Shown piece after piece: positions 18,684 through 38,682 of a stretch of DNA of 64,000 nt. The stretch lies in the NCBI GenBank assembly GCA_038321865.1, contig JBBQFH010000014.1, positions 1 to 64,000 of the forward strand, written 5' to 3'. This stretch comes from Gemmatimonadales bacterium. GTDB lineage: Bacteria; Gemmatimonadota; Gemmatimonadetes; Gemmatimonadales; GWC2-71-9. Positions within the stretch are counted from its first letter, which is position 1; each line of letters begins with the position of its first letter. The notes under the pieces were generated by a model. The model did no database searches. It was not told the DNA's origin and worked only from the letters and a program-made list of their open reading frames with translations. A program made the position numbers and the translations under genes.

Positions 18684-19832
18684 ATGGTTCGTACCACGTC
18701 TACGCACTCTATCGGCTGGACCCTGGCGCTTGCCCTGGTGCTCCCCGCCAGCGCGGCGGCGCAGGCCGCACGGCCACAGTCGGTCACCGTCAAGGCCGGC
18801 GACACCCTCTGGGGGCTCTCCCGCCAATATCTCGGCGACCCATTTCTGTGGCCCGAGATCTATCGGCTGAATACCCTGGTCGTCGAGGACCCGCACTGGA
18901 TCTATCCCGGTGAGCTGCTTCGGCTGGCATCATCGGATGCGGTCACGGCCGTGCCGACGACCGACACGCCGCCTCCGGTGGATCCAGGCGCGCCGGTGGC
19001 GCAGCAGTCCCCCGCCGCGCCGGTGCGGGTGCAGGCTGCCGCGGCGCCCGATTCCGACGGGGCCGACATGTCGGCGCTGTTCTCACAGGGCCGGCGCAAT
19101 GAACTGATGCGCGAGACGCTGCGGGCATACAGCGATCAGCCGTATCGTCCGCTCCGGCGGAGCGAATTCTTTTCGTCCGGGTTCCTGACCGAGGGGCGTT
19201 CGCTTCCGTTCGGTCGGCTGACAGGCCGGGTGACGCCGCCCCAGATCGCGATGATCAGCGACAAAGTCACGGCGAACCTCTACACCGAGGTCACCCTCGC
19301 TCCCCCCTCGGGCGGCAGCTACCAAGTCGGTGACTCGCTGCTCGTCGTCGATCTCGATCGTGACGTTGCCGACTTCGGTCGGCTGGTGCTTCCGACCGGC
19401 CTGGTGCGGGTGATCGACGTCCGGGCCGGCCAGTATGTGGGATCGGTCGTGGCCGTCTACGGGGACATGCACAACGGGCAGCGGATTCTGCCGACCGAGA
19501 AGTTCGGCGATGCCGGTACGGTGCGCGCCGTGGCAGTGGCGGACGGAGTGCAGTCCCGCCTGCTCGGTGGAGCCCGTAACCGTCCGCTCAAGAAGCCGCA
19601 GGACGTGATTTTTCTGGACAAGGGCCGCAAGGACGGCGTCGCCGCGGGCGACGTGTTCGAGGTGCGCCGCACCGTCACGCGTGACGGTGACAAGGCGGTT
19701 CCCGAGGTCATGGCGACGCTTCAGGTGGTGCACGTCAATGACCACAGCGCGACGACGCGGATCCTCTCGATCACCTCGCCCGATCTCCCGATCGGCTCCG
19801 AGGCGCGCCAGATCGCCAAGCTGCCGTCCTGA
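18684..19832 (+). CDS. Secreted LysM peptidoglycan-binding protein (TsaP-like architecture)
   Basis: Signal peptide, then LysM VKAGDTLWGLSRQYLGDPFLWPEIYRLN...DPHWIYPG. C-terminal IFLDKGRKDGVAAGDVF (FlgT-C-like). Confidence 0.8.
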   Translation: MVRTTSTHSIGWTLALALVLPASAAAQAARPQSVTVKAGDTLWGLSRQYLGDPFLWPEIYRLNTLVVEDPHWIYPGELLRLASSDAVTAVPTTDTPPPVDPGAPVAQQSPAAPVRVQAAAAPDSDGADMSALFSQGRRNELMRETLRAYSDQPYRPLRRSEFFSSGFLTEGRSLPFGRLTGRVTPPQIAMISDKVTANLYTEVTLAPPSGGSYQVGDSLLVVDLDRDVADFGRLVLPTGLVRVIDVRAGQYVGSVVAVYGDMHNGQRILPTEKFGDAGTVRAVAVADGVQSRLLGGARNRPLKKPQDVIFLDKGRKDGVAAGDVFEVRRTVTRDGDKAVPEVMATLQVVHVNDHSATTRILSITSPDLPIGSEARQIAKLPS

Positions 19833-20013: not shown

Positions 20014-20964
20014 ATGAGTGGACGGGTGCTGGTAGCGGGCGGCGCGGGATTCATCGGGTCGCATATCGCGGAAGCCTACCTGGCTGCGGGGTGGGAGGTC
20101 GTGGCGCTCGATGACCTGTCCCGCGGCAAAGCGTCGAATGTGCCGAAGGGTGTCGAGCTGATCCGGGCCGACGTGCGTTCGCTGGAGGCACGGCGCGCCG
20201 TCGCCGCCGGCGGCTTCAACGTGCTGAACCAGCAGGCCGCCCAGATCGACGTCCGCCACTCGGTCGATGATCCCGGCTACGACGCCGGCATCAACCTCCT
20301 CGGCCTCGTGAACATGCTCGAAGGTGCCGCCGAAGGCGGGGTCCGCCGGGTCGTGTTCGCCAGCAGCGGCGGCGTCCTGTACGGAGAAGCGACGGTGATT
20401 CCGACGCCGGAAACGGCGCCCAAGATGCCGGTGTCCCCCTATGGCGTCAGCAAGCTCGGCGGCGAGCATTATCTCCGGGTTCTCGCGGCACTCCGGAACT
20501 TCGAGGGCGTCGCGATGCGGTATGCCAACGTGTTCGGGCCGCGCCAGGATCCGAAATCGGAAGCCGGTGTCGTGTCCATCTTCGTTTCGCGGCTGCTGGC
20601 GGGTCAGGGCATCACGATCTTCGGCGATGGCACCCAGACGCGCGACTACGTATTCGTGAAGGATGTGGCGCGCGCGAACGTGCTGGCGAGCACCGTGCCG
20701 ATGCCGGCGGTGACCGATCATGACTCGCTGGCGTTCAATGTCGCGACCTCGGCGCAGATGAGCGTGCTCGAACTGGCGGATGCCGTGGGCCGGGCGCTGG
20801 GCCGGAAACCGGACATCGCGTTCGCCGATCCGCGCGCGGGCGAGCTCTCCCGCAGCTCGCTCGAAACATCCAAGGCGGAACGCGTGCTCGGCTGGTCACC
20901 GCAGGTGCAGTTCGCCGACGGCCTGGCCCAGCTCGCGGACTGGTTTCGCGCGGAGTGCCCATGA
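20014..20964 (+). CDS. UDP-glucose 4-epimerase-like NAD-dependent epimerase
   Basis: VAGGAGFIGSH, AAQIDVRHSV, ASSGG, YGVSK, RYANVFGPRQ, GTQTRDYV. Confidence 0.88.
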   Translation: MSGRVLVAGGAGFIGSHIAEAYLAAGWEVVALDDLSRGKASNVPKGVELIRADVRSLEARRAVAAGGFNVLNQQAAQIDVRHSVDDPGYDAGINLLGLVNMLEGAAEGGVRRVVFASSGGVLYGEATVIPTPETAPKMPVSPYGVSKLGGEHYLRVLAALRNFEGVAMRYANVFGPRQDPKSEAGVVSIFVSRLLAGQGITIFGDGTQTRDYVFVKDVARANVLASTVPMPAVTDHDSLAFNVATSAQMSVLELADAVGRALGRKPDIAFADPRAGELSRSSLETSKAERVLGWSPQVQFADGLAQLADWFRAECP

Positions 20965-21671
20965 TGCAAGTCGGCCGGGCAGTACCCACGTCGTCGTGGG
21001 AGCTGGTCACGACCTCGAGCACCGAGACCAAGGTGGTGCTGGTGGTCATCGCGGTGTTCTCGATCGTGTCGTGGTTCATCATCGTGCTGAAGTGGTGGCA
21101 GTTCCGCCGGCTCAACCGGCAGGCCGAGCGTTTCTTCCAGCGGATGGAGGAGACGACGCGGCTGGAGGAAGCCTACCAGGCGATTCTGAAGCAGCCGTCA
21201 TCGCCCTACAACCGGCTGTTCCGTGAGGCCATCAACTTCTACAACGAGCTGCGCCCTGGTGCGATCCACGAGTCGTTCGTCGGTACGCGTGAGATGCTGT
21301 CGGCCACCCAGCTCGAGGCATTCAAGATGGTGCTCGGCAAGGAAGTCTCCGCCGAGCGGGACCTCATGGGGCACCATATCCCGTGGCTCGCGACAATCGG
21401 GGCGGTCGGCCCGCTCCTCGGGCTGCTCGGCACCGTGCTCGGGGTGATGGACGCCTTCATCGGCATTGCCTCGAAGGGCTCCGGCAACATCGGTGCGGTC
21501 GCGCCGGGCGTCGCTGAGGCGCTGGTGACCACCGTCGCCGGCCTCGCGGCGGCGATCCCCGCGGTGATCGCCTACAATCTTTACGTGAATCGCGTCCGGC
21601 TCTTTGCCGGTGAGCTCGAGGGCTTCGCCAACCAGCTCGTCGGCACGATGGCGCGCGAGGGGCTGCTCTAG
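20955..21671 (+). CDS. tolQ: TolQ (MotA/TolQ/ExbB proton channel); start may be ATG 20961
   Basis: LATIGAVGPLLGLLGTVLGVM, VAPGVAEALVTTVAGLAAAIPAVIAYN. First gene of a tol-pal cluster. Confidence 0.9.
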   Translation: MPMMQVGRAVPTSSWELVTTSSTETKVVLVVIAVFSIVSWFIIVLKWWQFRRLNRQAERFFQRMEETTRLEEAYQAILKQPSSPYNRLFREAINFYNELRPGAIHESFVGTREMLSATQLEAFKMVLGKEVSAERDLMGHHIPWLATIGAVGPLLGLLGTVLGVMDAFIGIASKGSGNIGAVAPGVAEALVTTVAGLAAAIPAVIAYNLYVNRVRLFAGELEGFANQLVGTMAREGLL

Positions 21672-21672
21672 C

Positions 21673-22107
21673 ATGGCGGGCGGGCTGGGGAGCCTGGGCG
21701 GGCTCGGCGGGGGGAACGACCTTCCGCTGGTGGCCGATATCAACGTCACGTCGCTGGTAGACGTCGCGTTCGTGCTCCTGATCATCTTCATGATTACCGC
21801 GCCGATCATGCAGGGCGGAGTGGACGTGCAGCTGCCCCGGGCCGAGGCGCGGCCGCTGGCGGCGAAGGAGGGAATGGTTGTAACGGTGGACCGCGGCGGC
21901 CGGATCTTCATCGATGAAACGCCGATCACCTACAACGATTTCCGCATCACCTTCAAGTCGCTGGTCACCACCCGGAAGCCGACCGGCGTCTATCTCCGCG
22001 CCGACAGCCGGGTGGCCTATGGCGACGTGGTGCGGGCACTCGCCGTCATCCGCGCGTCGGGCATCCAGAACGTGGGGCTCGTGGCGGAGGACGAGAGCCA
22101 GAAGTAA
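21673..22107 (+). CDS. tolR: TolR/ExbD biopolymer transport protein
   Basis: DINVTSLVDVAFVLLIIFMITAP, LRADSRVAYG. Confidence 0.9.
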   Translation: MAGGLGSLGGLGGGNDLPLVADINVTSLVDVAFVLLIIFMITAPIMQGGVDVQLPRAEARPLAAKEGMVVTVDRGGRIFIDETPITYNDFRITFKSLVTTRKPTGVYLRADSRVAYGDVVRALAVIRASGIQNVGLVAEDESQK

Positions 22108-22805
22108 TGAAAGTCCGCAGCGACGCGCGCGCCGGCTCGGGCAAGGCGGCCGGGCTCCTGGGCACGGCGACGGTGCATGCGGCGGCCGCGTATTTCCTGC
22201 TCGCGGTGGTGAAGGCGCCGGCGGCATCGCCACCGGTGTACGCGGTCAATCTCGTCGCGGCTCCCGCGCCGGCTCCGAAGCAGCGCCTGGCGCCTGAAGC
22301 GACCCCCACGCCGCCCGCCCCCGAGCCGCCGGCGCCGGTGAAGAGCTCGGCAAAGGTGCCTCTCGCCAAGATTCCGACGCCCAGGCCCCGCGAGAACGTC
22401 GAACCCACGCCGCGCCACGACCCGACGCCCAAAACGTCCGCGCCCGAGGCGCCGGCCCCCGGCGAAACCCCGAGCACCGGCCGCGATGCGACGACGGTGA
22501 AGACGCCGGGACTTGATTTTCCGTATCCGGAATATCTGCGCAATGTCGAGAATCAGATCTACCGGCGCTGGGCCCGCCCGGTCGGCAACGCGGCGCTCCG
22601 CGCCGAAATCAGCTTCATGATCGCGCGCGACGGTACCGTTCGAAACATCCAGTTCGTCACGCGGTCCGGCAGCTTCTCCTACGATCTCGAGGCGCAGGGG
22701 GCCATCGAGTCGGCCGCGACCTCACGCGCGTTCGGACCGCTGCCCGATGGCTGGCAGGCGGACGTGCTGCCGATCAGCTTCTACTTCGAACCAAGGCCAC
22801 AGTGA
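22107..22805 (+). CDS. TolA/TonB-family energy transducer (short, Pro-rich)
   Basis: N-terminal TM with His, Pro-rich linker, YLRNVENQIYRRW...SGSFSYD...FGPLP TonB-C domain. Sits in the tolA position. Confidence 0.8.
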   Translation: MKVRSDARAGSGKAAGLLGTATVHAAAAYFLLAVVKAPAASPPVYAVNLVAAPAPAPKQRLAPEATPTPPAPEPPAPVKSSAKVPLAKIPTPRPRENVEPTPRHDPTPKTSAPEAPAPGETPSTGRDATTVKTPGLDFPYPEYLRNVENQIYRRWARPVGNAALRAEISFMIARDGTVRNIQFVTRSGSFSYDLEAQGAIESAATSRAFGPLPDGWQADVLPISFYFEPRPQ

Positions 22806-24106
22806 TGCGACGTGCTCTACTGCTTGGTGCCGCGACGCTCGCACTGGCGGGCGTGGCGCGTGCGCAGGACGCGGGCAAGGCGAGTGATGCGATCCGCATC
22901 GGGATCACCTACCGCCCCGGCACGCGGCCCGGTCTCGTCGTGGTGCCAGGACCCGGCCTCGACTCGGTCCGGGCGATCGTCGCCCGCGATCTCGACTTCA
23001 GCGACCGGTTCCAGATGGTCGCGGTCGGTCCCGACGCGATGGCATCAGCCCGGGCGGGCGCGGGACCGCTGAACTACGGCCTGTTTCGCACCTTCGGGGC
23101 CGATCATGCCGTCGAGATCGTGCCCGCTGCCGGCGGGGTCACCGTCCGCCTGCACGATCTCGGCACGTCCCGCGTCCGCAACCAGCAGACCTTCTCGCTG
23201 CCGGGCGAGACCGAGAGCGGCTTCCGCCTCGCGGCGCACCGGATCGCCGACGAAGTGACCCGTTGGGCCTCAGGTGCCGACGGGTATGCCGCGAGCCGCC
23301 TCCTGTACCTCGCCGGTGGCCGGGTATATCGGGTGGACAGCGACGGCGCCGACGGCGCCGGCGTGACGCCCTCCGGCGAGTCGGTGTTCTCGCCGGCCTG
23401 GTCGCCCGACGGGTCAAGGATCGCGTACACGAGGCTCGACCGCTGGAGCATTTCAATCCTTGATCTCGCGACGCGCGCGGTCACCACGGTGCCCGGCACC
23501 GAGAACGGGCAGAACATCACGCCGGCGTTCTCGCCTGACGGCCGCCTGCTGGCATACGCGCACATGGACGCCAGCGGCACCAACATCTATGCGGCGGATA
23601 TCGCGCAGCGCTGCTGCGTGCAACGCTTGACCGTGGGACGCTTCGCGGACAACTTAAGCCCCACGTATTCACCCGACGGACGGCGCGTCGCGTTCGTGTC
23701 CACCCGTGCCGGGCCGCCGCAGATCTACGTCATGGGAGGCGACGGGACCGATCAGGAACTGCTCGCGTCCTTCGATTTCGGCAGCACCGGCCCGTCGAAC
23801 GCGCCTGAATGGTCTCCCGACGGTGCGAGTGTGGTGTTTCACCGCGAAGTCTCCCGCAGCCCGCAGATCTTCATCCTGGACGTGGCAAGCCAGCGGGTGA
23901 AGCAGCTGACTTCGGTCGGTCGCAACGAGGACCCGACGTGGGCCCCCGACGGGCGCCACGTCGCATTTATTTCCGATCGCACCGGACGTCGACAGGTCTG
24001 GATCGTCGACACCGATACCGGCCGGGTTCGCCAGCTGGGCACCGCCGGCGCCGCCCGCCTTCCCTCATGGTCCCGGCGTCTGCACGGTGCCGGGCCCAAT
24101 CCCTGA
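22802..24106 (+). CDS. tolB: Tol-Pal beta-propeller protein TolB
   Basis: Signal peptide, ARDLDFSDRF, AHRIADEV, multiple P(A/T)WSPDG PD40 repeats. Confidence 0.9.
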   Translation: MMRRALLLGAATLALAGVARAQDAGKASDAIRIGITYRPGTRPGLVVVPGPGLDSVRAIVARDLDFSDRFQMVAVGPDAMASARAGAGPLNYGLFRTFGADHAVEIVPAAGGVTVRLHDLGTSRVRNQQTFSLPGETESGFRLAAHRIADEVTRWASGADGYAASRLLYLAGGRVYRVDSDGADGAGVTPSGESVFSPAWSPDGSRIAYTRLDRWSISILDLATRAVTTVPGTENGQNITPAFSPDGRLLAYAHMDASGTNIYAADIAQRCCVQRLTVGRFADNLSPTYSPDGRRVAFVSTRAGPPQIYVMGGDGTDQELLASFDFGSTGPSNAPEWSPDGASVVFHREVSRSPQIFILDVASQRVKQLTSVGRNEDPTWAPDGRHVAFISDRTGRRQVWIVDTDTGRVRQLGTAGAARLPSWSRRLHGAGPNP

Positions 24107-24123
24107 TCGCTGGAGTGTCTGTC

Positions 24124-24723
24124 ATGCGTGTTCCCGTCCTCTTCGCCCTCGCAGCCGCCACGACGATCGCCGCGTGCGGCGGCAAGCCCGACCCGGAGCA
24201 GCCTGCGCCGATCGTCGCCACCACCACTCCGTCGGCCGACAGCATCGCGCGCGCGGCGCGAGCCCGGCAGGATTCGATCGATGCAGAGAACCGGCGCCGG
24301 GCGGATGAAGAGGCGCGCCGCCGCGCGGCCGATCTGGCCGGCCGCTCCTCGCAGGTCCTGGCCGATTTGAAGGCGATGATCAACTTCGACTACAACGAGG
24401 CCGCCGTTCGGGCCGCCGACCAGGCGATCCTCGACCGCAAGGCAGCGATCATGCAGGCGAATCCGGGACTTCGCATCCGCATCAGCGGGCACGCCGATGA
24501 GCGTGGGTCGGACGAATACAATCTCGCGCTGGGCAACCGCCGTGCGGCGGCGGCGCAGCGGTACCTGCAGAACAAGGGGATCGATGCCGCGCGGGTCGAC
24601 GTGATCTCCTATGGTGAAGAGCGCCCGCTCGATCCGTCCGGCAGCGAGGACGCCTACGCCAAGAACCGGCGCGATGAGTTCGACGTGACCGGCGGCGGCG
24701 ACAGCCTGGTCGCGCCACAGTGA
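24124..24723 (+). CDS. pal: Peptidoglycan-associated lipoprotein Pal
   Basis: Lipobox IAAC, INFDYN, GHADERGSDEYNLALGNRRA, ISYGEERP, KNRRDEF. Confidence 0.94.
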   Translation: MRVPVLFALAAATTIAACGGKPDPEQPAPIVATTTPSADSIARAARARQDSIDAENRRRADEEARRRAADLAGRSSQVLADLKAMINFDYNEAAVRAADQAILDRKAAIMQANPGLRIRISGHADERGSDEYNLALGNRRAAAAQRYLQNKGIDAARVDVISYGEERPLDPSGSEDAYAKNRRDEFDVTGGGDSLVAPQ

Positions 24724-25517
24724 GTTCGCGCGTCCTCGCGCTCGCCGCCATCGGACTCCTCGGCGGCTGCGCCATGAAGAGCGATGTCGTCCGGGTGCAG
24801 AACGAGGTCGCGTTCCTGCGCGAGGAGAGCGCGCGCCAGGACTCGTCCCGCGCCCGCCAGCTGACCGAAGTGATCCGGCTGCAGCAGCGCCTGTTCGATT
24901 CGCTGGCCACCACCCGTGAGACGATCCGGACGCTGCGGGGCGACGTCGCCAACGACCTCTACGGCGTGCAGCAGCAGCTGGTCCAGCTCCAGGAGCTGAC
25001 CGGTCAGAGCCAGCGGCGGCTTACCGAGCTCCGGACCCAGCTCGAGGCCCGCGCCGAGCAGCTGGGAGCGACCGGGTCACCGGCGGCGGGGACTGCGCCG
25101 CACGGCGACAGCGCGGTGCCAGCGCCACCCGCGGCCGGCAACGCGTCGGCCGACCAGATGTACGAGGCCTCGCTGGCCCAACTGCGCCGGGGCAGCGCCG
25201 CCACCGCGCGGCTCGGCTTCCGGGAGATGCTCCGCGCCTATCCCGGCAGCGACAAGGCACCCGACGCACTCTACTTCATCGGCGAGAGCTTCCGCACCGA
25301 GAACGCGGACTCGGCCGCCGCCTACTACGATCAGGTAGCGCGAACGTACCCGCAGTCGCCGCGCGCCGCATCCGCCCTGTACAATCTCGGCCTGCTCAAT
25401 GAACGCGCGAAGCGGAATCCCGCGGCGCGGGACGCCTACCAGCGTGTCGTGCAGACCTATCCGAACTCGGACGAAGCCGCGCTCGCGCGTGACCGCCTGA
25501 AGGCGCTCGGGCGTTAA
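24720..25517 (+). CDS. cpoB: Tol-Pal associated protein CpoB/YbgF (lipoprotein)
   Basis: Lipobox LGGC, coiled coil, then TPRs (YPGSDKAPDALYFIGE). Directly after pal. Confidence 0.82.
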   Translation: MSSRVLALAAIGLLGGCAMKSDVVRVQNEVAFLREESARQDSSRARQLTEVIRLQQRLFDSLATTRETIRTLRGDVANDLYGVQQQLVQLQELTGQSQRRLTELRTQLEARAEQLGATGSPAAGTAPHGDSAVPAPPAAGNASADQMYEASLAQLRRGSAATARLGFREMLRAYPGSDKAPDALYFIGESFRTENADSAAAYYDQVARTYPQSPRAASALYNLGLLNERAKRNPAARDAYQRVVQTYPNSDEAALARDRLKALGR

Positions 25518-25535: not shown

Positions 25536-28500
25536 ATGACCGGTCCCGCCGGAGAAATGCCCTTCCTCGATCACCTCGAGGAGCTCCGCATGCGGATCAT
25601 CTGGTCGCTGGTGGCCCTCGTCGTCGGCATTGGCGTGGGCTTCTGGGTGGTTCAGCATTTCCAGCTCGTTTCCCTCCTCAAGACGCCCATTGCTCCCTAC
25701 CTCGCCAACGGGGGCAAGCTCACCGTGCTCAGCCCGACCGAGCCGGTGATGATCGTCTTCAGGCTGAGCCTGGTGGTGGGTCTGGTGCTGGCTTCGCCGG
25801 TCGTCTTCTGGCAGCTCTGGGCGTTTCTGGCGCCGGCGCTGTACGGCAAGGAAAAGCGGGTGCTGGTGCCCGCGCTCTTCGCCGGTGCGCTGCTCTTCAT
25901 GACGGGCGGCGTGCTGGCGTGGATCTTCGTGGTGCCGAAGACGCTGGAGGTGCTGTTCAGCTTTCAGTCGGAAGCCATCGCCCCGATGATCACCTACGAT
26001 GCCTATTTCGATTTCATCGTGCAGATCGTCGTGGCCCTCGGCATCTCGTTCGAGCTGCCGCTGGTGATGATCATCCTGGCGTGGCTGGGCATCGTGACGC
26101 CGCAGTGGCTCAACCGGTTCCGGCGCTACGCCGTCGTGCTGGCGTGCATCGCGGGTGCGGTGCTCTCACCCGGCACCGACGTCCTGTCGATGATCATGAT
26201 GACGCTGCCGCTGCTGGTGCTGTACGAGGTGGGTGTGGCCGGAGCCGCGCTGGTCCACCGGCGGAAGCGGAAGGCGGCGGCCGCGGCGCTTCCGCTTCTG
26301 CTCCTCCTGGTGCTCGCCGCCGGCCGCAGCGCCGAGGCACAGGATCCGTTCGCGCGGCGTCCGCCAGCGAGCCTGCTGCCGCAGGGCCAGACCACCCGGC
26401 CCACGAACGGGCCGATCGACACCGCCAAGGCGCGCCGCGCCGGCATCCCCACCGCACCGACGCAGACGTTCCCGGAACCCGATTCGGCGATGCGAAGCCT
26501 GCTCGACCGGCCGGGTTATGCCGCGACCCATTTCGTCGCCGACTCCATCACCCTGTTCGCCGGGGAGAAGCGCGTCGAGATGGGTGGGTCGGCGCTGACC
26601 GAGCGTCAGGGCGTGAAGCTCGAGGCAGGGACGGTTCGCTACCGCCAGGAGGACTGCCTGCTCGAGGCCTCCGGCAAGCCCCATCTGTTCGACAAGGATC
26701 AGGTGATGCTGGGCGAGGGGATCAGCTACAACACCTGCACGCATCGAGGGGTGATCCGCGGCGCGTTCACCAACTTCACGGAGCAGGGCGCCGTCTGGTT
26801 CCTGCGCGGCAACGTCGCGTCCGATTCGAGCTCGACCAGGCTGTATGCCGCCTCGAGCGAAATCACCAGCTGCGATCTGCCGATCCCGCACTATCACTTC
26901 GCGGCCCGCGAGGTGAAATGGGTGTCGAACAGCGTGATCGTGGCCCGGCCGGTGGTGCTGTACGTGCGCGACGTGCCGATCCTCTGGCTGCCGTTCATCT
27001 TCCAGGACACGCGTCCGGGGCGCCACTCGGGAATTCTGACGCCGCAATTTGGCCTCAACGACATCGTTCGCACCTCGAGCAGCTACCAGCGCCAGCTCAC
27101 CAACCTGGGCTACTACTGGGTGATGAGCGACTACGCCGACGCCACCTTCCGGGTGGACTGGTACTCCGGCCGTTACCTGCAGGCCAACGTGGGGCTCAAC
27201 TATCGGGTGCTGAACCGCTTCATGAGCGGGGCGCTCAGCCTGAACCGCCAGTGGCAGAACGGCGGCGGGTCGGGCAATGGCGTGCACTGGACGCACCAGC
27301 AGAGCTTCAGCCTGAGCACCAGCCTCAACTTTGATCTCAACTATCTGAGCAACTCCGCCATCGTACGGCAGAACGCGCTCGATCCGCTGCTCAACACCCA
27401 GCAGATCACCAGTTCCCTCAACCTGCAGAAGCGCTACAGCTGGGGCACGATCGCGCTGGGCGGCAATCGCCGGCAGAATCTGGGCGATAACAGCTCGACG
27501 ACGCAGCTGCCCTCGCTGACCGTATCGCCCAAGCCGCTCGATTTCGGACGCAACATCACGTGGTCGCCCGGGCTGAGCCTCACCAACGACCTCGCTCGCG
27601 GTACCGCCCTGCCGCGCCTGCTGTTCACGCGGCCGGACGGCTCGCTCGACAGCATCGCGCAGACCGGCACCAGCCGGATCACCGCAGTGAACTTTGACAC
27701 GCCGATCCGGTTCGGGTCGTTCAGCTGGCGGAACAGCCTGCGTGTCATCGACGGCGATTCCGTGGGCCGGCAGACGTTTCGGCAGCCGGATCTCACCACG
27801 CCTGACCCGACCGACTCGGTGAGCCGCACCGTCGCCGGGGGCTTCGGCAGCTCGGTCGACTGGGATACCGGAATCAACCTGCCGCTCCTCTTCCGGAGCA
27901 CCTGGAAGCTGCAGCCGACGGTCGCGATCCAGAACTCGTCTCCCCTGGCTCCGTTCGCAGTCCGCAATCGCAATACCGATGGCCGCTTCGTCCGGCAGGG
28001 CAAGCGGCCCTCGCTCAGTCTGAGCCTCACGCCGACGTTCTACCGGCGCTTCGGCGGGCTGGGGCCGCTGGCCGCCATCCGCCACAGCATCTCGCCCCAG
28101 CTCCTCTTCAACTACCAGCCGGCCGCGACCATTTCGGACGAGTTCGCCCAGGCGATCTCGCGGCCGGGCTTTCTGGTGCCGACCCGCAGCGAGCCGCTGC
28201 AAACCGTCTCCCTCAACCTCACCCAGACGTTCGAGGGAAAGGCGCGCCCCCGTCCGGGGGACACCCTCGCCGGGATCGAGCCGCGGAAATACCGGCTGCT
28301 GAGCATCTCGACCAGCCAGCTCACTTACGACTTCGAGCAGGCCAAGAAGGAGGGCCGCACCGGCTGGACGACGCAGTTCATCACCAACTCCCTGCTGAGC
28401 GATCTGCTGCCGGGGTTCAGCGTGAGCCTCACGCACGACCTCTGGCGCGGTGCGGTCGGAACGGATACGGCCCATTTTTCCCCGTACCTGACCCAGGCGA

Positions 28501-29030
28501 GCGCGGGTTTTTCGCTCTCCTCGCGCACCTTCCGGTCGATTGGTTCGTTCTTCGGACTGCTCGGGCGGCGCGAACGGGAGCCAGGCGAACCGGACGATGC
28601 TCGCATTCCCGGCTACTCGCCGCAGCGGAACCGGCCAGGGAGCCCGGGCGCGTTCTACAACACCGATCAGATTCCGCTCTCGACGCAGGGCCGCGGCTTC
28701 AATGCGCAGGTCAACTATTCACTCACGCGCACTCGGCCGCTCCCCAACAGCACGGTGGACAATCCGAGCAACGAGCGCCAGAGTCTCGGCTTGAGCACGG
28801 TCTTCTCTCCGACGCCATTCTGGGCCATTTCCTGGCAGACTCAGTACAACCTGACCGACAAGCGGTTCGAATCGCACGTGGTGCGGCTGGAACGCGACCT
28901 GCATGAGTGGCGCGCGGCGTTCAACTTCGTCCGGAACGCGAACGGCAACGTCGCCTTCTACTTCTCGATCTATCTGACCGACCTGCCGCAGCTCAAGTTC
29001 GACTACGACCAGACCAAGCTCAGCCCCTGA
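25536..29030 (+). CDS. tatC: Fusion: twin-arginine translocase TatC (about aa 1-245), internal signal peptide, LptD-like outer-membrane protein
   Basis: TatC motifs EMPFLDHLEELRMR, WQLWAFLAPALY, GISFELP, RRYAVV, LLVLYEVG. Then HRRKRK-hydrophobic-AEA/Q. Then LptD-like TSCDLPIPHYHF, VPILWLPF, SGILTPQFG, RDLHEW. No stop codon in between. Confidence 0.85.
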   Translation: MTGPAGEMPFLDHLEELRMRIIWSLVALVVGIGVGFWVVQHFQLVSLLKTPIAPYLANGGKLTVLSPTEPVMIVFRLSLVVGLVLASPVVFWQLWAFLAPALYGKEKRVLVPALFAGALLFMTGGVLAWIFVVPKTLEVLFSFQSEAIAPMITYDAYFDFIVQIVVALGISFELPLVMIILAWLGIVTPQWLNRFRRYAVVLACIAGAVLSPGTDVLSMIMMTLPLLVLYEVGVAGAALVHRRKRKAAAAALPLLLLLVLAAGRSAEAQDPFARRPPASLLPQGQTTRPTNGPIDTAKARRAGIPTAPTQTFPEPDSAMRSLLDRPGYAATHFVADSITLFAGEKRVEMGGSALTERQGVKLEAGTVRYRQEDCLLEASGKPHLFDKDQVMLGEGISYNTCTHRGVIRGAFTNFTEQGAVWFLRGNVASDSSSTRLYAASSEITSCDLPIPHYHFAAREVKWVSNSVIVARPVVLYVRDVPILWLPFIFQDTRPGRHSGILTPQFGLNDIVRTSSSYQRQLTNLGYYWVMSDYADATFRVDWYSGRYLQANVGLNYRVLNRFMSGALSLNRQWQNGGGSGNGVHWTHQQSFSLSTSLNFDLNYLSNSAIVRQNALDPLLNTQQITSSLNLQKRYSWGTIALGGNRRQNLGDNSSTTQLPSLTVSPKPLDFGRNITWSPGLSLTNDLARGTALPRLLFTRPDGSLDSIAQTGTSRITAVNFDTPIRFGSFSWRNSLRVIDGDSVGRQTFRQPDLTTPDPTDSVSRTVAGGFGSSVDWDTGINLPLLFRSTWKLQPTVAIQNSSPLAPFAVRNRNTDGRFVRQGKRPSLSLSLTPTFYRRFGGLGPLAAIRHSISPQLLFNYQPAATISDEFAQAISRPGFLVPTRSEPLQTVSLNLTQTFEGKARPRPGDTLAGIEPRKYRLLSISTSQLTYDFEQAKKEGRTGWTTQFITNSLLSDLLPGFSVSLTHDLWRGAVGTDTAHFSPYLTQASAGFSLSSRTFRSIGSFFGLLGRREREPGEPDDARIPGYSPQRNRPGSPGAFYNTDQIPLSTQGRGFNAQVNYSLTRTRPLPNSTVDNPSNERQSLGLSTVFSPTPFWAISWQTQYNLTDKRFESHVVRLERDLHEWRAAFNFVRNANGNVAFYFSIYLTDLPQLKFDYDQTKLSP

Positions 29031-30680: not shown

Positions 30681-33089
30681 ATGAATCTCGAAAAGCTCAA
30701 GGATACGGCGCGCAAATTCGAGCAGAAGGAGGATTGGCGAAGGGCGATCGACGTCTACGTCAAAGCCATCCAGGAGTTCGAGTCCGGGCGGGAATCCGCA
30801 CCTGACCTCTCGCTCTACAATCGTGTCGGTGACCTCCATCTCAAGCTGAACGACCCCGCCGCGGCGCTGCGCTCCTACGAGCGTGCCGCCGATCTGTACG
30901 CGGACCAGGGGTTCCTCAACAACGCCATCGCGCTCTGCGGGAAGATTTTGCGGGTGAATCCCGGACGGGTGCAGACCTATCTCAAGCTGGCGCAGCTGCA
31001 CGCCCGGAAGAATGTTGTCATCGAGGCGAAGCGGAATCTGATCGAGTTCATCGAGCGCATGAACGCGCTGAACCAGCTCGATGACGCCTTCCGCTCGGTC
31101 AAGAGTTTTGCCGACCAGTTTTCGGGCAACCAGGATATTCGACTGATGCTGGTCGAGCTTCTGCGGGCGGCGTCCCGCGACGACGAGGCGCGAGAACAGC
31201 TCGAGAAGATGGCGGCCGATCTGGAGTCGCACGGCGACCGCGACGGGGCCCGGGCCACGCGCGAGCGGCTGCACGCGATCGACCTGGAGCTGCCCGACGA
31301 CATGCCCGCTCCGGCCGCGCGGGTGAAGAACGATCTGGTCTTCCTCGACACCGCGCCGGTGCCGGCCGCCGCCCGCGACGTCGCCCCCGCTCCCGGCCTG
31401 GAGCTGCCGCCCGAGCCGGAACCGGAGGTGCCGATCACCCCGGCTGAGGGATTCGTCCCGGCCGAGATGCTGGTGCTGGATGAGCCGGTGCAGCCGCTCG
31501 ACGTGATGGACGATGGCCTGATGGATCCGGAAGAGCTGGCGGACGACGCAGACATCGCGCCGATGGAGGATCTCGAGTCGGCGATCACGGCGCGCATCAC
31601 CGCAGAGGCCGCTCGCCCGCTTGACGGGCTCGTCCTCGATTCCGCGGCGGAGCTCGACTCGAGCGGCAGCGGTCTGGACGGGATGCTCCTGGCCGACGAA
31701 GACCTGGCGCTCGAGCAGGCCGCCCCCGGCGACCTCGAATTCGATCCCGCCCCCGGCCAGCGGATCGAGCTCGATGAACCGGCGAGCGGAGGCGACTTCG
31801 CGCTGGACTACTCCGGCCTCGGCGCGGAGTATCTGCCCGAAGGGGATGCGGCGATTCCGCTGGACGAATCGTTCGCCGCAGCCGAGCCCGAGGACGCCCT
31901 CTGGCACAGTCAGGCGGTGGAGGCCGACGCATCGGTGGAGCAGCCATCGGTCTCGTCCGAGCTCTCCTTCATCCAGGGTACCGGTCCCGATGAGCTCGCC
32001 GCGCCGACCGACGGCGCCGCGGCGTCGATCGAGGCGGCCGAGCCGGGCCCGAGCATTATCGACCTCGAAGAGGCGGTGCTCGACGATCCGCAGAACCCCG
32101 ATCACCACCGGGCGCTCGCCGACGCCCTCCTGACCAACGACGAAGCCGAGCGTGCGCGCGAGGAGTACGAGCTCGCCCTCGAAGGGTACGCGGCGGCGGA
32201 GGCGTGGGCAGACGCACTGGACGCGGTGGACGCCCTGATCTGGCTCGATCCGGAGAGCGTGCGCTATCACCAGAAGCGGGTCGAAATGGTCTTCCGGAGC
32301 GGAGACCGCACCCGGCTCGTCGAAGCCTACATCAGTCTGGGTGACACGCTCGCGCGCGAGGGTGCGGTGGATAAGGCGCTGGCCGTGTACGGGCGCGTCA
32401 TCGAGCATGAGCCGTCCAATGCGCACGCAGTCGCCGCGATGTCGGCGCTGCGGTCCGCGCCGCCGGAGGCTGCCGCTCCGTCCTCGCTCGCGCCACCCGC
32501 CGCGCCCCGCCGCGCCCCGCCAATCGACCGGCCAGCCGTAGCCGATCCGGCAGCGGCGGGCTTCGTTGACTTCGGCTCCATGGTGCTCGATCGTGGCGTC
32601 ACCCGCGACACCCGCATGCGGGTGGAATCCGAGCGGCCGACCGGGGACGAGCAGCGCGATTTCGAGCAGACGCTGGCGCAGTTCAAGCGCGGGATCGAGC
32701 AGAACATCGAAACCGACGACTTCCAGTCGCACTACGATCTCGGCGTCGCGTTCCGGGAGATGGGACTGCTCGACGAGGCGATCGCCGAGTTCCAGAAGGC
32801 GCTGCGGGCCCCCGAGGGGCGCCTGCGGACGTCCGAGGCGCTGGGCCTGACCTTCTTCGACAAGGGACAGTTCGCCATCGCCGAAACGATTCTGCGGCGG
32901 GCGGTCGATGCAGCAGACGGAGCGGAGGACGACAAGATCGGAGCCCTCTACTGGCTCGGCCGCTCCTGCGAGGCACAGGACAAGGCGGCGGAGGCGACCG
33001 CCAGCTACGAGCGCGCGCTGGCGGTAGACATCCGATTCCGCGATCTCGGTGAGCGCGTCCGGCGCCTCGGGGCGGCGCGACCGAAATGA
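30681..33089 (+). CDS. Large TPR protein with acidic low-complexity linker (SgmX/FimV-like architecture)
   Basis: N-terminal TPRs, Asp/Glu/Pro-rich middle, C-terminal SHYDLGVAFREMGLLDEAIAEFQKA TPR block. Confidence 0.75.
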   Translation: MNLEKLKDTARKFEQKEDWRRAIDVYVKAIQEFESGRESAPDLSLYNRVGDLHLKLNDPAAALRSYERAADLYADQGFLNNAIALCGKILRVNPGRVQTYLKLAQLHARKNVVIEAKRNLIEFIERMNALNQLDDAFRSVKSFADQFSGNQDIRLMLVELLRAASRDDEAREQLEKMAADLESHGDRDGARATRERLHAIDLELPDDMPAPAARVKNDLVFLDTAPVPAAARDVAPAPGLELPPEPEPEVPITPAEGFVPAEMLVLDEPVQPLDVMDDGLMDPEELADDADIAPMEDLESAITARITAEAARPLDGLVLDSAAELDSSGSGLDGMLLADEDLALEQAAPGDLEFDPAPGQRIELDEPASGGDFALDYSGLGAEYLPEGDAAIPLDESFAAAEPEDALWHSQAVEADASVEQPSVSSELSFIQGTGPDELAAPTDGAAASIEAAEPGPSIIDLEEAVLDDPQNPDHHRALADALLTNDEAERAREEYELALEGYAAAEAWADALDAVDALIWLDPESVRYHQKRVEMVFRSGDRTRLVEAYISLGDTLAREGAVDKALAVYGRVIEHEPSNAHAVAAMSALRSAPPEAAAPSSLAPPAAPRRAPPIDRPAVADPAAAGFVDFGSMVLDRGVTRDTRMRVESERPTGDEQRDFEQTLAQFKRGIEQNIETDDFQSHYDLGVAFREMGLLDEAIAEFQKALRAPEGRLRTSEALGLTFFDKGQFAIAETILRRAVDAADGAEDDKIGALYWLGRSCEAQDKAAEATASYERALAVDIRFRDLGERVRRLGAARPK

Positions 33090-34356: not shown

Positions 34357-34617
34357 GTGGGCAACCTCGGGGTGTGGGAAATCCTGCTGATCATGGTGGT
34401 GGTGCTGCTCGTCTTCGGCGCCAAGCGGCTGCCGGAAGTCGGCGGCTCGATCGGCAAGGGAATTCGCGAATTCAAGCGCAGTCTCACCGACACGTCCGAC
34501 GCCATCATGAATCCGGACGACCAGCACCGCAGCCAGCTGCCGCCGCGGCAGGTGGATCAGATGTCGCAGCAGCCCTCTCCGCCGACCTCCGGCGAGCCGA
34601 AGCGGCTGTCACAGTAG
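34357..34617 (+). CDS. tatA: Twin-arginine translocase subunit TatA
   Basis: AGGAGG RBS. WEILLIMVVVLLVFGAKRLPEVGGSIGKGIREFK. Confidence 0.95.
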   Translation: MGNLGVWEILLIMVVVLLVFGAKRLPEVGGSIGKGIREFKRSLTDTSDAIMNPDDQHRSQLPPRQVDQMSQQPSPPTSGEPKRLSQ

Positions 34618-34684: not shown

Positions 34685-36526
34685 TCAGGTGCGGACCGGT
34701 TGCTGCTGCTGGGCGCTCTGGGTGGTGCCCTGCCGCAGCACCTTGTCGCGGTTGTCCACGATCTTGGCCTGTGAGCGGAGTGCGGCGAGGTAGTTCCGGA
34801 TCCGCTCGTCGCGCATGTCCCGCACCGTCTTGGCGCGGAACTCGTCGAGGCCCTTCACGAACGCCGCCGAATCCGCCTTCACGTGTTCGAGGCTCTCGAC
34901 CACGTACAGCCCGTCCTTGGTCTCCAGGACGCCGCTCCGCTGGCCCTGCTGCAGCCCGAACGCGGTGCCGACCAGGAGCGGGATGTCGAGCGGTGGCGAG
35001 ATCCGCGAGAAGGGTCCGAATTCCTTGTGCGCGAGCCGCAGCGCCGTCGCCGCCTGGGCCGGCGTGCTCCCCTCCTTTACCCGCTTCAGATACTCCTCGG
35101 CGACGCCGCGTGCCCGGCTGCGCTTCTTCTGGTCGCGGACGGTGAACTCGACGGCCGGGCGGATCCGCGACAGCTCGGGCACGCCGGCGGGCTGCAGGCT
35201 GTCGAGGCGGAAGACGTATAGCGCTTCGGGCGTCTCGATCACCGGGCTCAGCTCCCCCGGCTTGGCCCGGAAGGCCCACACCCCGGCGTCGGGCACGACT
35301 GAGGTCCCGACCTGCGCCCGACTCCCCTTCAGCACGGGCGCCGTGCGGCCGATCGGCAACTTGAGCACGCGGGCCGCGCTGTCGAGCGCCGCACCGTCCG
35401 TCTGCGCGGAAGTGATCCGATCCAGGCTGTCGGTCAGGGCGTCGAGGGTGTCGCGATGGGCGCCGGCCACCTCGATCGGGATCAGGATGTGACGCCCCTT
35501 CGCCTTGTCGCCGGTGCGACTCGTCACCTCGATCAGGTGGTAGCCGAATTCAGTGCGTACCGGGGCCGACAGGGTGTTGAGCGGCATCGTAAAGGCGGCG
35601 GAATCGAACGCCGCGGCGAACTGCCCCTTGGTCCACTCGCCGAGATCGCCGCCGCGATTGCCCGAGACGGTGTCGGCGGATTCACGCTTGGCGACTTCGG
35701 CGAACGGCGCTCCACCCGAGATTTCCTGACGAATCCTGAGCGCGCGGTCGAGCGCCGCGGCGCTGTCGGCGGAATTGGCCGCGTGCGCCAGCCGCACGAA
35801 GCTCAGGTAGGCCGTTTCCGGGCGCTTGAACTCGTCCTGGTGAGCGCGGTAGTACGCATCGACTTCCTGCGGCGTGATGGTCACGCCGCTGTCGGGAATG
35901 ACGTTGCGCGGCACGATGGCGGTCAGGTCGATCTTCACCTGCTCGTGCTCGTCGCGGTAACGCTCCCAGAGCGCGGCGTCCGAGAGCACGACATCCGCGG
36001 TGACGATGCGCAGGAGCTTGTTACGCAGGATGACGTCGCGGTATTGCGCGCCGATGGCATCCACGTACGGGGTGGCGGCGCTCGACGTCAGCCACCGCTG
36101 ATACTTCGCCATGTCGAACTTGCCATCGGTCTGGAAATCCGGGGCCTGCTGGAACTGTTCCGGGGGATTGTTCTTCACCGCGTCGGCGAGCTCGTCCTTC
36201 GAGACCGACAGGTCGCGGCGTTTGAACTGGGACTCGAGGATGTTGGTCGCGAGAAACTCTTCCCAGGCCTGATCCCGGATCTGGTTCTGCTCCTCGAGCG
36301 TCAGTGCCGCCGGAGATGCCTTCTGCGCCTGCTCGGTAAGCTGGCTGACGCGTGTCTCGTAGGCTCTGGTCGTGATCTCCTGTCCGTTGATCTTCCCCAC
36401 CGTCCGGCCGCCGGACAGCCCCATGCTGTCACTGAGCCCGCTGACGGAGCCCAGCAGCCATACCAGGAGGATCACGGCAAAGAAAACCGCGACGACTTTC
36501 GTGCTGTTGCGGAACGCTTGCATCAT
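34685..36526 (-). CDS. PpiD/SurA-family peptidyl-prolyl isomerase chaperone
   Basis: N-terminal anchor, SurA_N (VGKINGQEI, FQTDGKFD), parvulin FAEVAKRESAD...GGDLG...VRTEFGYHLI. Confidence 0.88.
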   Translation of the reverse strand: MMQAFRNSTKVVAVFFAVILLVWLLGSVSGLSDSMGLSGGRTVGKINGQEITTRAYETRVSQLTEQAQKASPAALTLEEQNQIRDQAWEEFLATNILESQFKRRDLSVSKDELADAVKNNPPEQFQQAPDFQTDGKFDMAKYQRWLTSSAATPYVDAIGAQYRDVILRNKLLRIVTADVVLSDAALWERYRDEHEQVKIDLTAIVPRNVIPDSGVTITPQEVDAYYRAHQDEFKRPETAYLSFVRLAHAANSADSAAALDRALRIRQEISGGAPFAEVAKRESADTVSGNRGGDLGEWTKGQFAAAFDSAAFTMPLNTLSAPVRTEFGYHLIEVTSRTGDKAKGRHILIPIEVAGAHRDTLDALTDSLDRITSAQTDGAALDSAARVLKLPIGRTAPVLKGSRAQVGTSVVPDAGVWAFRAKPGELSPVIETPEALYVFRLDSLQPAGVPELSRIRPAVEFTVRDQKKRSRARGVAEEYLKRVKEGSTPAQAATALRLAHKEFGPFSRISPPLDIPLLVGTAFGLQQGQRSGVLETKDGLYVVESLEHVKADSAAFVKGLDEFRAKTVRDMRDERIRNYLAALRSQAKIVDNRDKVLRQGTTQSAQQQQPVRT

Positions 36527-36621: not shown

Positions 36622-36650
36622 TTGACACCGGGTGGCGGGCTCGCTAGTCT
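36622..36650 (+). promoter_or_regulatory. Putative sigma70 promoter of the TPR-aroQ-efp-acc operon
   Basis: TTGACA-17-TAGTCT. Confidence 0.65.
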
Positions 36651-36717
36651 GGGTGCACACGCCGCACCAATTCGGACCCCCGACTTGCTAACCGTTCTGA
36701 CCAGCACCGGGAACGCG

Positions 36718-38682
36718 ATGTCCACCAGCGAAATCGCCAAACTCGAGAGTCGTTGGCGGGAGAACCGGCAGGGGCTCACCTTTGCCCCGCTGGCCGAGGC
36801 GTACCGCAAGATGAAGGAGCCGCAGCGCGCCCTCGAGATCCTGGGCGAAGGACTCGCGCTTCATCCCGAGTATATCCCGGCGAGCATCGTGCTGGGCCGG
36901 TGCCATCTGGATCTCGGAGACGACGTGGCCGCCGAGACCGCGTTTCTGCGCGTCCTGACACTCGACGCGGAAAACGTGATCGCCCTCAAGGCGCTCGCCG
37001 AGATCACCGAGCGCAATGCGCGTTTCGGCGAGGCGGAGAACTGGCTCAGGCAACTCCTCACGATCGATCGGAGCAACGACGAGGCTCGCGGTCAGCTGGC
37101 CCGCGTGGACGAAGGCCGCCGCCGGGCCGAAGCCGACACGGTTGCCGGCGTCCCGGACGGCGAACCTCCGGAGCCGCTGCATGCCAGCGATGCCGAAGCT
37201 TCCGGCAGCACCGACGACGAAGTCGAGCTCGCCGAACTACCCGCAGCGCACCCGCAGCACGTGCAGCCGGAGCCCGTCGACGAACCGGTTGCCGAGCACG
37301 AGCCGCTCGGCTCGTTCGACGTGGCGGCACCGAATCTCGCGGCGGAACAGTCCACGGCACATCACGAGGACCCACTGCCGACCGGGGCGGACCGGTGGAC
37401 CGGCAACGAGGCCGTCGACGCGTCCCTGCTCGATGTGGCGACTCCCGTGGCCCCCGGCCTGGACGTCCATCAGTTCGAGGTCGGTGATATCAGCCCAACC
37501 GACGACCGCAGCGCGATCGGACTTGAGATCGTCCATGAGGACGAGGCGGCTGCTCCCATCGCCGATGCCGAGCTCCGGTCGGCCGGGGTGAGTGAATTCC
37601 AGATACTGAGCGACGCCGACGAGCTCGGGCTCGGGGCGCTGGAGGCCCGGTCCGAGGCATCCGATTACCAGAGTCCCGACGCCGCCGCCGATCTCGCGCT
37701 GCAGGCGCAGGAGGGACCGCGCACGTCGGAGTATCAGGGTGCCGATGCGGCAGCCGATCTCGCGGGCGGCACGTATGGCTTTGGCTCCGCGTCGGACCCG
37801 GAAGTGACTGAGGAGTATCCGCTGCGCGGTGAGGCCGACAGCGCAGGCCAGAACTCGGAGCCCGAGGCCGATGCGGGCACCGACGAGGACTCCGACATCA
37901 CGCAGGAAATGGCGACATCGCTCGGCGCCTATGCGGCCTGGACCGAGCCTGTGGCCGAGCGTGAATCGATCGCGATGGAGCAGACCGGCCTGGACCCGTC
38001 ACCCGCATCGGTGCCCACGACCGAACCGCCAGCCGTGGTCGCGGGCGAGGAGAGTGACGCCGATGAGCCGAGCGCCGAGACTGCCGGAACGGTGGAGCCG
38101 CATCTGGTCGTCACGGAGTCGATGGCAGAGCTCTATCTGCGCCAGGGACATCATTCGGAAGCCCTCACCATCTACCGCGAGTTGTATCTCCGCCGGCCCG
38201 ATGATCTGCGCCTTCGGGAAAAGGTCGACCAGCTCGAAACCGCGGAAGCAGCTGCTGAATCGGGCGAGGCCGAGCCGGCTGGTTACTCTGCCGCCGACAC
38301 GGGTGGCCAGTCGGTGACGACACTGTTCCAGCAGCTGCTGGCCGGCCGTCCGGCACCTGCGGGCGGACGGGCAGTGCCCCATCCGGCCGGCGCACAGCCG
38401 TCGGCGAGCCGTAACACCTCCGCGGCACCGGCCGGCGCCGGGGAGCCGACACGGCCGGCTGATGACCGGTTGTCGCTCAGCTCGGTGTTCGGCGACGACA
38501 CCTCACCGGTGCCGCCGGCCGTTCCGGGCGGACCAGTCGGCCCGGCGCCGACCGACGGTATCTCGTTCGACGACTTCTTCGAGGCACCAGCGACCGCGGA
38601 GCCGACCACCCGCCGCCCGTCCGCACGTCAGGATGACGACCTCGACCAATTTCACGCCTGGCTGCAGAATCTGAAACGCTGA
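36718..38682 (+). CDS. TPR protein with long acidic disordered region
   Basis: FAPLAEAYRK N-terminal TPRs, acidic linker, VVTESMAELYLRQGH TPR, terminal DDDLDQFHAWLQNLKR. Confidence 0.75.
   Translation: MSTSEIAKLESRWRENRQGLTFAPLAEAYRKMKEPQRALEILGEGLALHPEYIPASIVLGRCHLDLGDDVAAETAFLRVLTLDAENVIALKALAEITERNARFGEAENWLRQLLTIDRSNDEARGQLARVDEGRRRAEADTVAGVPDGEPPEPLHASDAEASGSTDDEVELAELPAAHPQHVQPEPVDEPVAEHEPLGSFDVAAPNLAAEQSTAHHEDPLPTGADRWTGNEAVDASLLDVATPVAPGLDVHQFEVGDISPTDDRSAIGLEIVHEDEAAAPIADAELRSAGVSEFQILSDADELGLGALEARSEASDYQSPDAAADLALQAQEGPRTSEYQGADAAADLAGGTYGFGSASDPEVTEEYPLRGEADSAGQNSEPEADAGTDEDSDITQEMATSLGAYAAWTEPVAERESIAMEQTGLDPSPASVPTTEPPAVVAGEESDADEPSAETAGTVEPHLVVTESMAELYLRQGHHSEALTIYRELYLRRPDDLRLREKVDQLETAEAAAESGEAEPAGYSAADTGGQSVTTLFQQLLAGRPAPAGGRAVPHPAGAQPSASRNTSAAPAGAGEPTRPADDRLSLSSVFGDDTSPVPPAVPGGPVGPAPTDGISFDDFFEAPATAEPTTRRPSARQDDDLDQFHAWLQNLKR

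Follow-up and report, generated by a model that had tools for sequence, protein, structure and literature searches.

A single open reading frame (ORF) in the genome of a Gemmatimonadales bacterium (GTDB GWC2-71-9) joins TatC, the inner-membrane core of the twin-arginine translocase (Tat), to LptD, the outer-membrane barrel of lipopolysaccharide assembly. It lies in the 64,000-nucleotide stretch analyzed here, hereafter the window (GCA_038321865.1, contig JBBQFH010000014.1, positions 1 to 64,000 of the forward strand). We consider it likely that the product is a polyprotein, cut in two by signal peptidase I at a signal peptide buried in the chain; a predicted cleavage site followed by Gln is retained at this junction across the family. 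The parts of the fusion are as follows.

25536..29030, + strand: tatC::lptD fusion ORF, 1164 amino acids (aa), a single open frame without internal stop
25569..26210, + strand: TatC core, aa 12-225 (PF00902, TIGR00945, alignment to solved structures)
26235..26237, + strand: GTG with GAGGT upstream, once proposed as an internal start; unconserved and probably incidental
26259..26276, + strand: basic patch HRRKRK, the cytoplasmic tail of TatC, predicted to double as the n-region of the internal signal
26277..26324, + strand: h-region AAAAALPLLLLLVLAA (hydropathy window aa 247-265; model confidence low)
26325..26342, + strand: c-region GRSAEA followed by +1 Gln269; predicted signal peptidase I site, with predicted conversion to pyroglutamate thereafter
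26343..26420, + strand: Pro/Arg-rich disordered linker, the N-terminus of predicted mature LptD (predicted local distance difference test, pLDDT, below 50 for aa 262-292)
26520..26990, + strand: LptD beta-jellyroll, about aa 330-485 (profile match, model, Foldseek)
27090..29027, + strand: LptD beta-barrel, about aa 520-1164 (PF19838, model, Foldseek)

The two halves of the fusion

An earlier sequence-only reading of this DNA had described one uninterrupted frame of 1164 codons beginning with a complete TatC, and both points held: the frame is free of stops from 25536 to 29030 on the + strand, and in a profile search PF00902 matches aa 12-225 over all of its model positions (1-208 of 208, E 3.7e-61), with TIGR00945 scoring 206 bits (cut-off 132.7). 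Residues 7-235 align with few gaps to the solved Aquifex-type TatC structures 4b4a and 4hts. The six TatC helices are drawn in the structural model, and a hydropathy scan recovered five of the six windows; their sidedness, with the chain ending in the cytoplasm, follows the established topology of TatC. His13, Glu16, Phe97 and Glu106 are invariant in all 80 aligned fusions, Asp215 is present in 79 and Glu173 in 71, with Gln in the remaining nine; we take these residues to have the signal-binding or polar roles of their E. coli counterparts. The full-length model merges helix 6 and the signal into one low-confidence helix and is uninformative on topology.

The roughly 900 C-terminal residues, which had been called LptD-like, match LptD_2 (PF19838) at 119 bits against a cut-off of 22.5, the best stretch being aa 468-665. 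A model of aa 269-1164 built from 81 aligned sequences (mean pLDDT 80.8) begins with a disordered stretch, which is followed by a jellyroll and a large barrel. Among the matches listed, Foldseek returned LptD-type entries only, at ranks 1-37 (best E 3.5e-26, TM 0.53, 12% identity), and a profile comparison matches LptD and LptA. By its predicted fold, the C-terminal half is LptD. Each half is the only copy found in the source genome (G000), the sole tatC and the sole LptD_2 gene.

Genes for lptF/G were also found in the source genome. The LptE family PF04390 was matched in 17 of 31 genomes searched, and was called in none of the five others searched from the window's own genus. An LptE-like lipoprotein missed by Pfam, homologous to the PF04390 matches of relatives, is encoded on contig C47 (locus L195:341-898, - strand).

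The junction and the predicted cut site

We compared the junctions of 106 fusions, fetched from published genomes out of 130 fusions known at that stage. In all 106, two to nine Lys/Arg residues past helix 6 are followed by a hydrophobic stretch. In the window the junction reads HRRKRK-AAAAALPLLLLLVLAA-GRSAEA/Q as first described, with Q269 at nucleotide 26340. By our own rules the features of a signal peptidase I substrate are present, namely a basic n-region, an h-region and small residues at -3 and -1. The join is thus best described, from its predicted features, as the signal peptide of LptD with the basic tail of TatC as its n-region. Separate TatCs have a comparable basic patch behind transmembrane helix 6, and all 24 separate LptDs tested have a like site before Gln.

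A blind rule, which takes the last Ala after the h-region with Ala, Leu or Val at -3 and ignores +1, places a site in 96 of the 106 fusions (10 have no strict site), and Gln occupies +1 in 87 of these 96. Applied to internal hydrophobic segments of the source genome, the same rule gives Gln at +1 in 11 of 356, the fusion included. With a relaxed rule, a site plus Gln is present in 105 of 106 fusions versus 46 of 824 controls. A set of database proteins, which may overlap the 106 fetched fusions, gave Gln at +1 in 103 of 116 by the blind rule and a site plus Gln in 117 of 120 by the relaxed one. Positions -3, -1 and +1 are kept among proteins of about 45% identity while their neighbours vary; +2, within the disordered stretch, is variable (commonest residue in 27 of 105). 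A first site call, taking the first Gln after the h-region, was mis-set in 11 of 106 and was replaced by the blind rule; the presence of Gln269 in 80 of 80 rows of alignment A2 is circular, these rows having been picked for Gln269, and was not used. Strict AxA occurs in 43 of the 106 fusions under that first call. The AxA site proposed before Q269 therefore survives as a site with Gln but not as a strict motif, the consensus being rather (A/L/V)-x-(A/G/S)/Q.

Despite an RR pair in 92 of the 106 junctions, the twin-arginine consensus, in the patterns we take to define it, is present in none in strict form and in four in loose form. A Tat-type internal signal, with LptD exported by its own TatC, was rejected because this consensus is missing.

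The residue at +1 fits a wider habit. Among N-terminal signal-like segments of the source genome, Gln stands at +1 in 125 of 253, in a proteome of 2.9% Gln; within the window, Ala/Gln sites are seen in a LysM protein (18684-19832) and in TolB (22802-24106). The predicted signal peptides of this genome thus show a Gln +1 habit resembling the Q-rule of Bacteroidetes, and the internal site of the fusion obeys it more strictly than the genome average. In the portions covered of two papers on Bacteroidetes (PMC5837995, PMC10653852), signal peptidase I substrates with Gln at +1 are described; this Gln matters once the peptidase has exposed it, and is subsequently capped. Since Gln at +1 matters when it becomes a free N-terminus, cleavage by signal peptidase I is the best reading of the junction; the argument is indirect, and it is the main one.

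Candidate processing genes are at hand. Two signal peptidase I genes stand in tandem (G000:C52:9865-11180, - strand), and an M28-family lipoprotein gene (G000:C4:102698-103693, + strand, locus L194) lies about 6 kb from lptF/G; the best solved match of its product is a bacterial glutamine cyclotransferase (6qro, E 3e-53). The plant-type glutaminyl cyclase PF05096 was set aside, having given a weak sub-cut-off match only; the candidate is of the M28 type. M50 protease genes were also found.

Distribution and history of the fusion

Among 151 genomes of the family searched, 122 gave one stop-free match across the junction and five more proved fused on inspection, for a total of 127; without the three unpublished genomes (G019, G087, G144) the figure is 125 of 148. 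Related genomes thus do carry the fusion, and the possibility that all close relatives have separate genes, raised by the sequence-only reading, is not what was found. In the remaining genomes, 12 have adjacent separate genes, five a stand-alone tatC, one a tatC frameshift, three a match cut by a contig end and three no match. Elsewhere in the phylum, tatC was matched in 77 of 78 genomes and a frame of more than 1000 aa was found only in G035 and G215; two matches are unlisted in this tally, which alone is affected by the unpublished G219 and by G191, a member of the family that is likewise unpublished. In the 16 loci fetched from outside the family, lptD follows tatC in every case, separate in 15 and fused in G215. 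Separate pairs often overlap by GTGA or ATGA. They resemble the fusion in gene order, folds and the signal peptide before Gln, and differ from it in having a stop and restart where the fusion has one frame and the TatC tail as n-region.

Several loci are of interest in their own right. In G040 (L049), the tatC stop TAG is followed at once, in frame, by the lptD GTG, one change short of fusion, and G021 is fused after a check of its reported TAG. In G130 (L100), a frameshift interrupts tatC while the lptD junction is intact in the other frame, either an assembly error or a broken gene. In G012 and G017 lptD stands directly behind cpoB, the TatC half gone, and a different tatC is found at another place. 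Stand-alone tatC genes of a distinct group (L042, L043, L090, L095, L098, L099) occur in G012, G017, G094, G142 and G146, and in G104 as a second copy beside the fusion. G035, in which the first tatC has undergone its own fusion to lptD, has a second tatC with tatA right behind it (L034).

To place these states in order we used quick trees under LG+G4, one of concatenated sequences with 152 rows rooted on other classes and an IQ-TREE subset of 36 rows. Separate genes are nested among fused ones in six places (G001; G253; G015/G103; G006/G097; G055/G117/G063/G124/G167; G105), of which G001 belongs to the same genus as the window. Monophyly of the family's fused rows is rejected by the approximately unbiased (AU) test (p-AU 9e-05), as is the grouping of G035 and G215 with the family (p-AU 1e-04). 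The simplest reading of these trees is one old fusion followed by six re-splits, with two more origins in the sister family f2; the separate genes of family f3 may reflect a seventh re-split, or that family may be a sister group. After a re-split the genes have a start again, and a like site before Gln is retained.

In the window, the fusion ORF starts 18 bases past cpoB, at the end of a tol-pal run on the same strand, and a histidine-ammonia-lyase-type gene lies downstream. Two context features complete the list.

20955..25517, + strand: tolQ, tolR/exbD, tolA/tonB-like, tolB, pal and cpoB, upstream of the fusion
34366..34497, + strand: tatA/B-family gene, the sole one found in the genome

A SurA/PpiD-like peptidyl-prolyl isomerase with an N-terminal anchor (34685-36526, - strand) adjoins tatA. 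A large TPR protein whose middle is a long, acidic stretch of low complexity is encoded at 30720-33089 (+ strand), and a similar protein at 36622-38682.

Proposed processing of the fused chain

A probable origin and route can be proposed for such a chain, the route following what is established for Sec, signal peptidase and BAM. An ancestral, translationally coupled tatC-lptD pair would have lost its stop and restart, turning the basic cytoplasmic tail of TatC into the n-region of the LptD signal peptide. The ribosome would insert the six TatC helices co-translationally at Sec; the seventh hydrophobic stretch would then insert N-in, C-out, and export of the remaining 896 aa would begin. One of the two tandem signal peptidases I would cut after Ala268, the candidate lipoprotein glutaminyl cyclase would cap the new N-terminal Gln269 as pyroglutamate, and chaperones would carry LptD to BAM and LptE at the outer membrane. 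TatC would stay behind in the inner membrane, the used signal now forming its seventh helix. The seven-helix TatC of the sequence-only reading is to this extent retained, with the proviso that an RseP-type protease may trim the helix further (M50 genes exist).

Parts of this scheme have parallels. The cytochrome b-c1 precursor FbcH of Bradyrhizobium japonicum, studied by Thony-Meyer and colleagues, is reportedly a polytopic protein and an exported protein joined by an internal signal and cut in two. Of the three features by which we take that type to be defined, one ORF and an internal signal are present in TatC-LptD and two mature products are predicted; both FbcH products are said to stay in one inner-membrane complex, whereas TatC and LptD have unrelated functions in different membranes. 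The portions covered of the other sources supply further comparisons. The Streptomyces Rieske protein has an internal signal of the Tat type (PMC13186574), whereas the TatC-LptD junction lacks the twin-arginine consensus and has a predicted cleavage site. Halobacterium TatC2, two fused TatCs (PMC13186574), is likewise a natural TatC fusion but joins TatC to TatC in one membrane without an exported partner. The Q-rule system with PgQC shares the frequent Gln at +1 and a lipoprotein M28-type cyclase-like gene, but the descriptions concern Bacteroidetes (the portion of PMC5837995 covered has 0 occurrences of 'gemmati'), whereas TatC-LptD would apply the rule internally. PMC13721041, which does not describe the fusion in the portion covered, counts LptD with the Sec substrates whose signal is cleaved, a further point against its export by TatC, and the covered portion of PMC3827258 has 0 matches for fusion, fused or LptD. 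No description of a TatC-LptD fusion surfaced in the literature searched, although subscription journals and supplements could hold one.

Several points weigh against cleavage by signal peptidase I. The cut itself is inferred from sequence, and the motif, inherited from the separate ancestor, shows continued selection without showing the cut directly. The related genomes are not statistically independent, the signal and site rules are home-made, and the 2825 genes of the source genome were called by our own script. The M28 lipoprotein matches entries named 'aminopeptidase' about equally well. On the LptD side, scores for the NCBIfam equivalogs of proteobacteria fall well short of their cut-offs (PRK04423, 21 vs 944 bits; PRK03761, 19 vs 683), so the protein is not of that subfamily, and a Pfam search of the source genome gave no match to PF04390.

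Four other explanations were weighed. LptD could be made separately from a start within the end of tatC, the fused chain being a by-product, as the sequence-only reading had allowed. The GTG at 26235 does exist, with GAGGT four bases upstream; Shine-Dalgarno (SD)-like words mark 37.5% of predicted ATG starts in the source genome versus 10.6% of internal ATG/GTG codons; and such a start would yield an identical Gln terminus. But of four congeners two (G003 and G005) have GTC instead, and a start codon stands at the position in only 17 of 106 fused genes, with an SD-like word in six. Between the last TatC Glu and the h-region, a start with an SD-like word occurs in 19 of 106 fused genes and in 4 of 33 tatC genes that are separate; ATG, GTG and TTG are all absent from the stretch in 16 of the 106, and the GTG share of Val codons there is 0.56 versus 0.54 elsewhere in tatC. 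An internal start would moreover leave TatC still made with LptD attached and needing a cut, and we regard it as quite unlikely. That another protease cuts the chain, or that it is cut elsewhere with the motif a relic, draws on the M50 proteases in the genome and on the fact that no experimental precedent for cleavage behind six helices surfaced in the literature searched; conservation of -3, -1 and +1 at about 45% identity amid variable neighbours makes this very improbable.

The chain might instead stay uncut, or be cut late, so that inner-membrane TatC is tethered through helix 7 and a linker to outer-membrane LptD. The disordered linker, the position of the gene behind the tol-pal genes, the unbroken chain in 127 of the 151 genomes of the family and the three apparent origins of the fusion are all in keeping with this. 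Against it, the link was repeatedly lost, by re-splits at six places within the fused lineages, and G012 and G017 have lptD behind cpoB and a different tatC at another place. Gln and the first jellyroll anchor lie hardly farther apart in fused proteins (median 72.5 aa, n = 104) than in separate ones (70 aa, n = 24), and a cleavage motif in a tether would be expected to decay, yet it is kept. This second alternative of the sequence-only reading is thus very unlikely. That the fusion is an error of assembly or sequencing, or is recent and dead, has next to no probability. The source genome is 89.85% complete in 139 contigs, and the relative G130 has a frameshift in tatC, but the open frame recurs family-wide and PF00902 and PF19838 occur together in 120 of 120 database proteins among the matches listed. 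The read support that had been called for exists as a Logan contig of run X1, which bridges the junction with no stop, frameshift or difference over 25918-26441; X1 may be the source sample, in which case the contig is no independent support. Runs X2-X4, with small shares, gave no junction-bridging piece among the matches listed. Nor does a sole tatC and sole LptD_2 gene with intact key TatC residues look like a dead fusion.

Cleavage by signal peptidase I remains the favoured reading, and the join may not be the only one of its kind. A protein with a BatD domain and a TPR/SH3 end, which we take to be BatE-like, is encoded at G000:C20:23297-25621 (- strand, locus L197) and is joined through RR, a hydrophobic stretch and LRA/Q. 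On visual inspection, 15 of the 16 loci from the family have the site and Gln, against 0 of 2 from f2. BatD::BatE is therefore a second candidate polyprotein with the same kind of predicted join, which suggests a wider tolerance of internal signals in the family. Two further matches from the control set (on C21 and C5) resemble over-long gene calls.

Polyproteins cut by signal peptidase are well known from viruses and rare in bacteria. Taking TatC::LptD and BatD::BatE together, we lean toward the view that signal peptidase I serves this family as an enzyme for processing polyproteins in general. Database entries name these proteins of 1,100-1,200 aa plain TatC, which hides the family's LptD, and recognition of the fusion corrects that annotation. 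The system would allow a test of whether a signal that lies behind 240 residues and six helices is accepted by Sec and signal peptidase I, and of whether a beta-barrel protein can begin its export co-translationally. If the reading is true, one chain, with three separate origins and six reversions behind it, supplies two core envelope proteins to two membranes in most of a large uncultured family.

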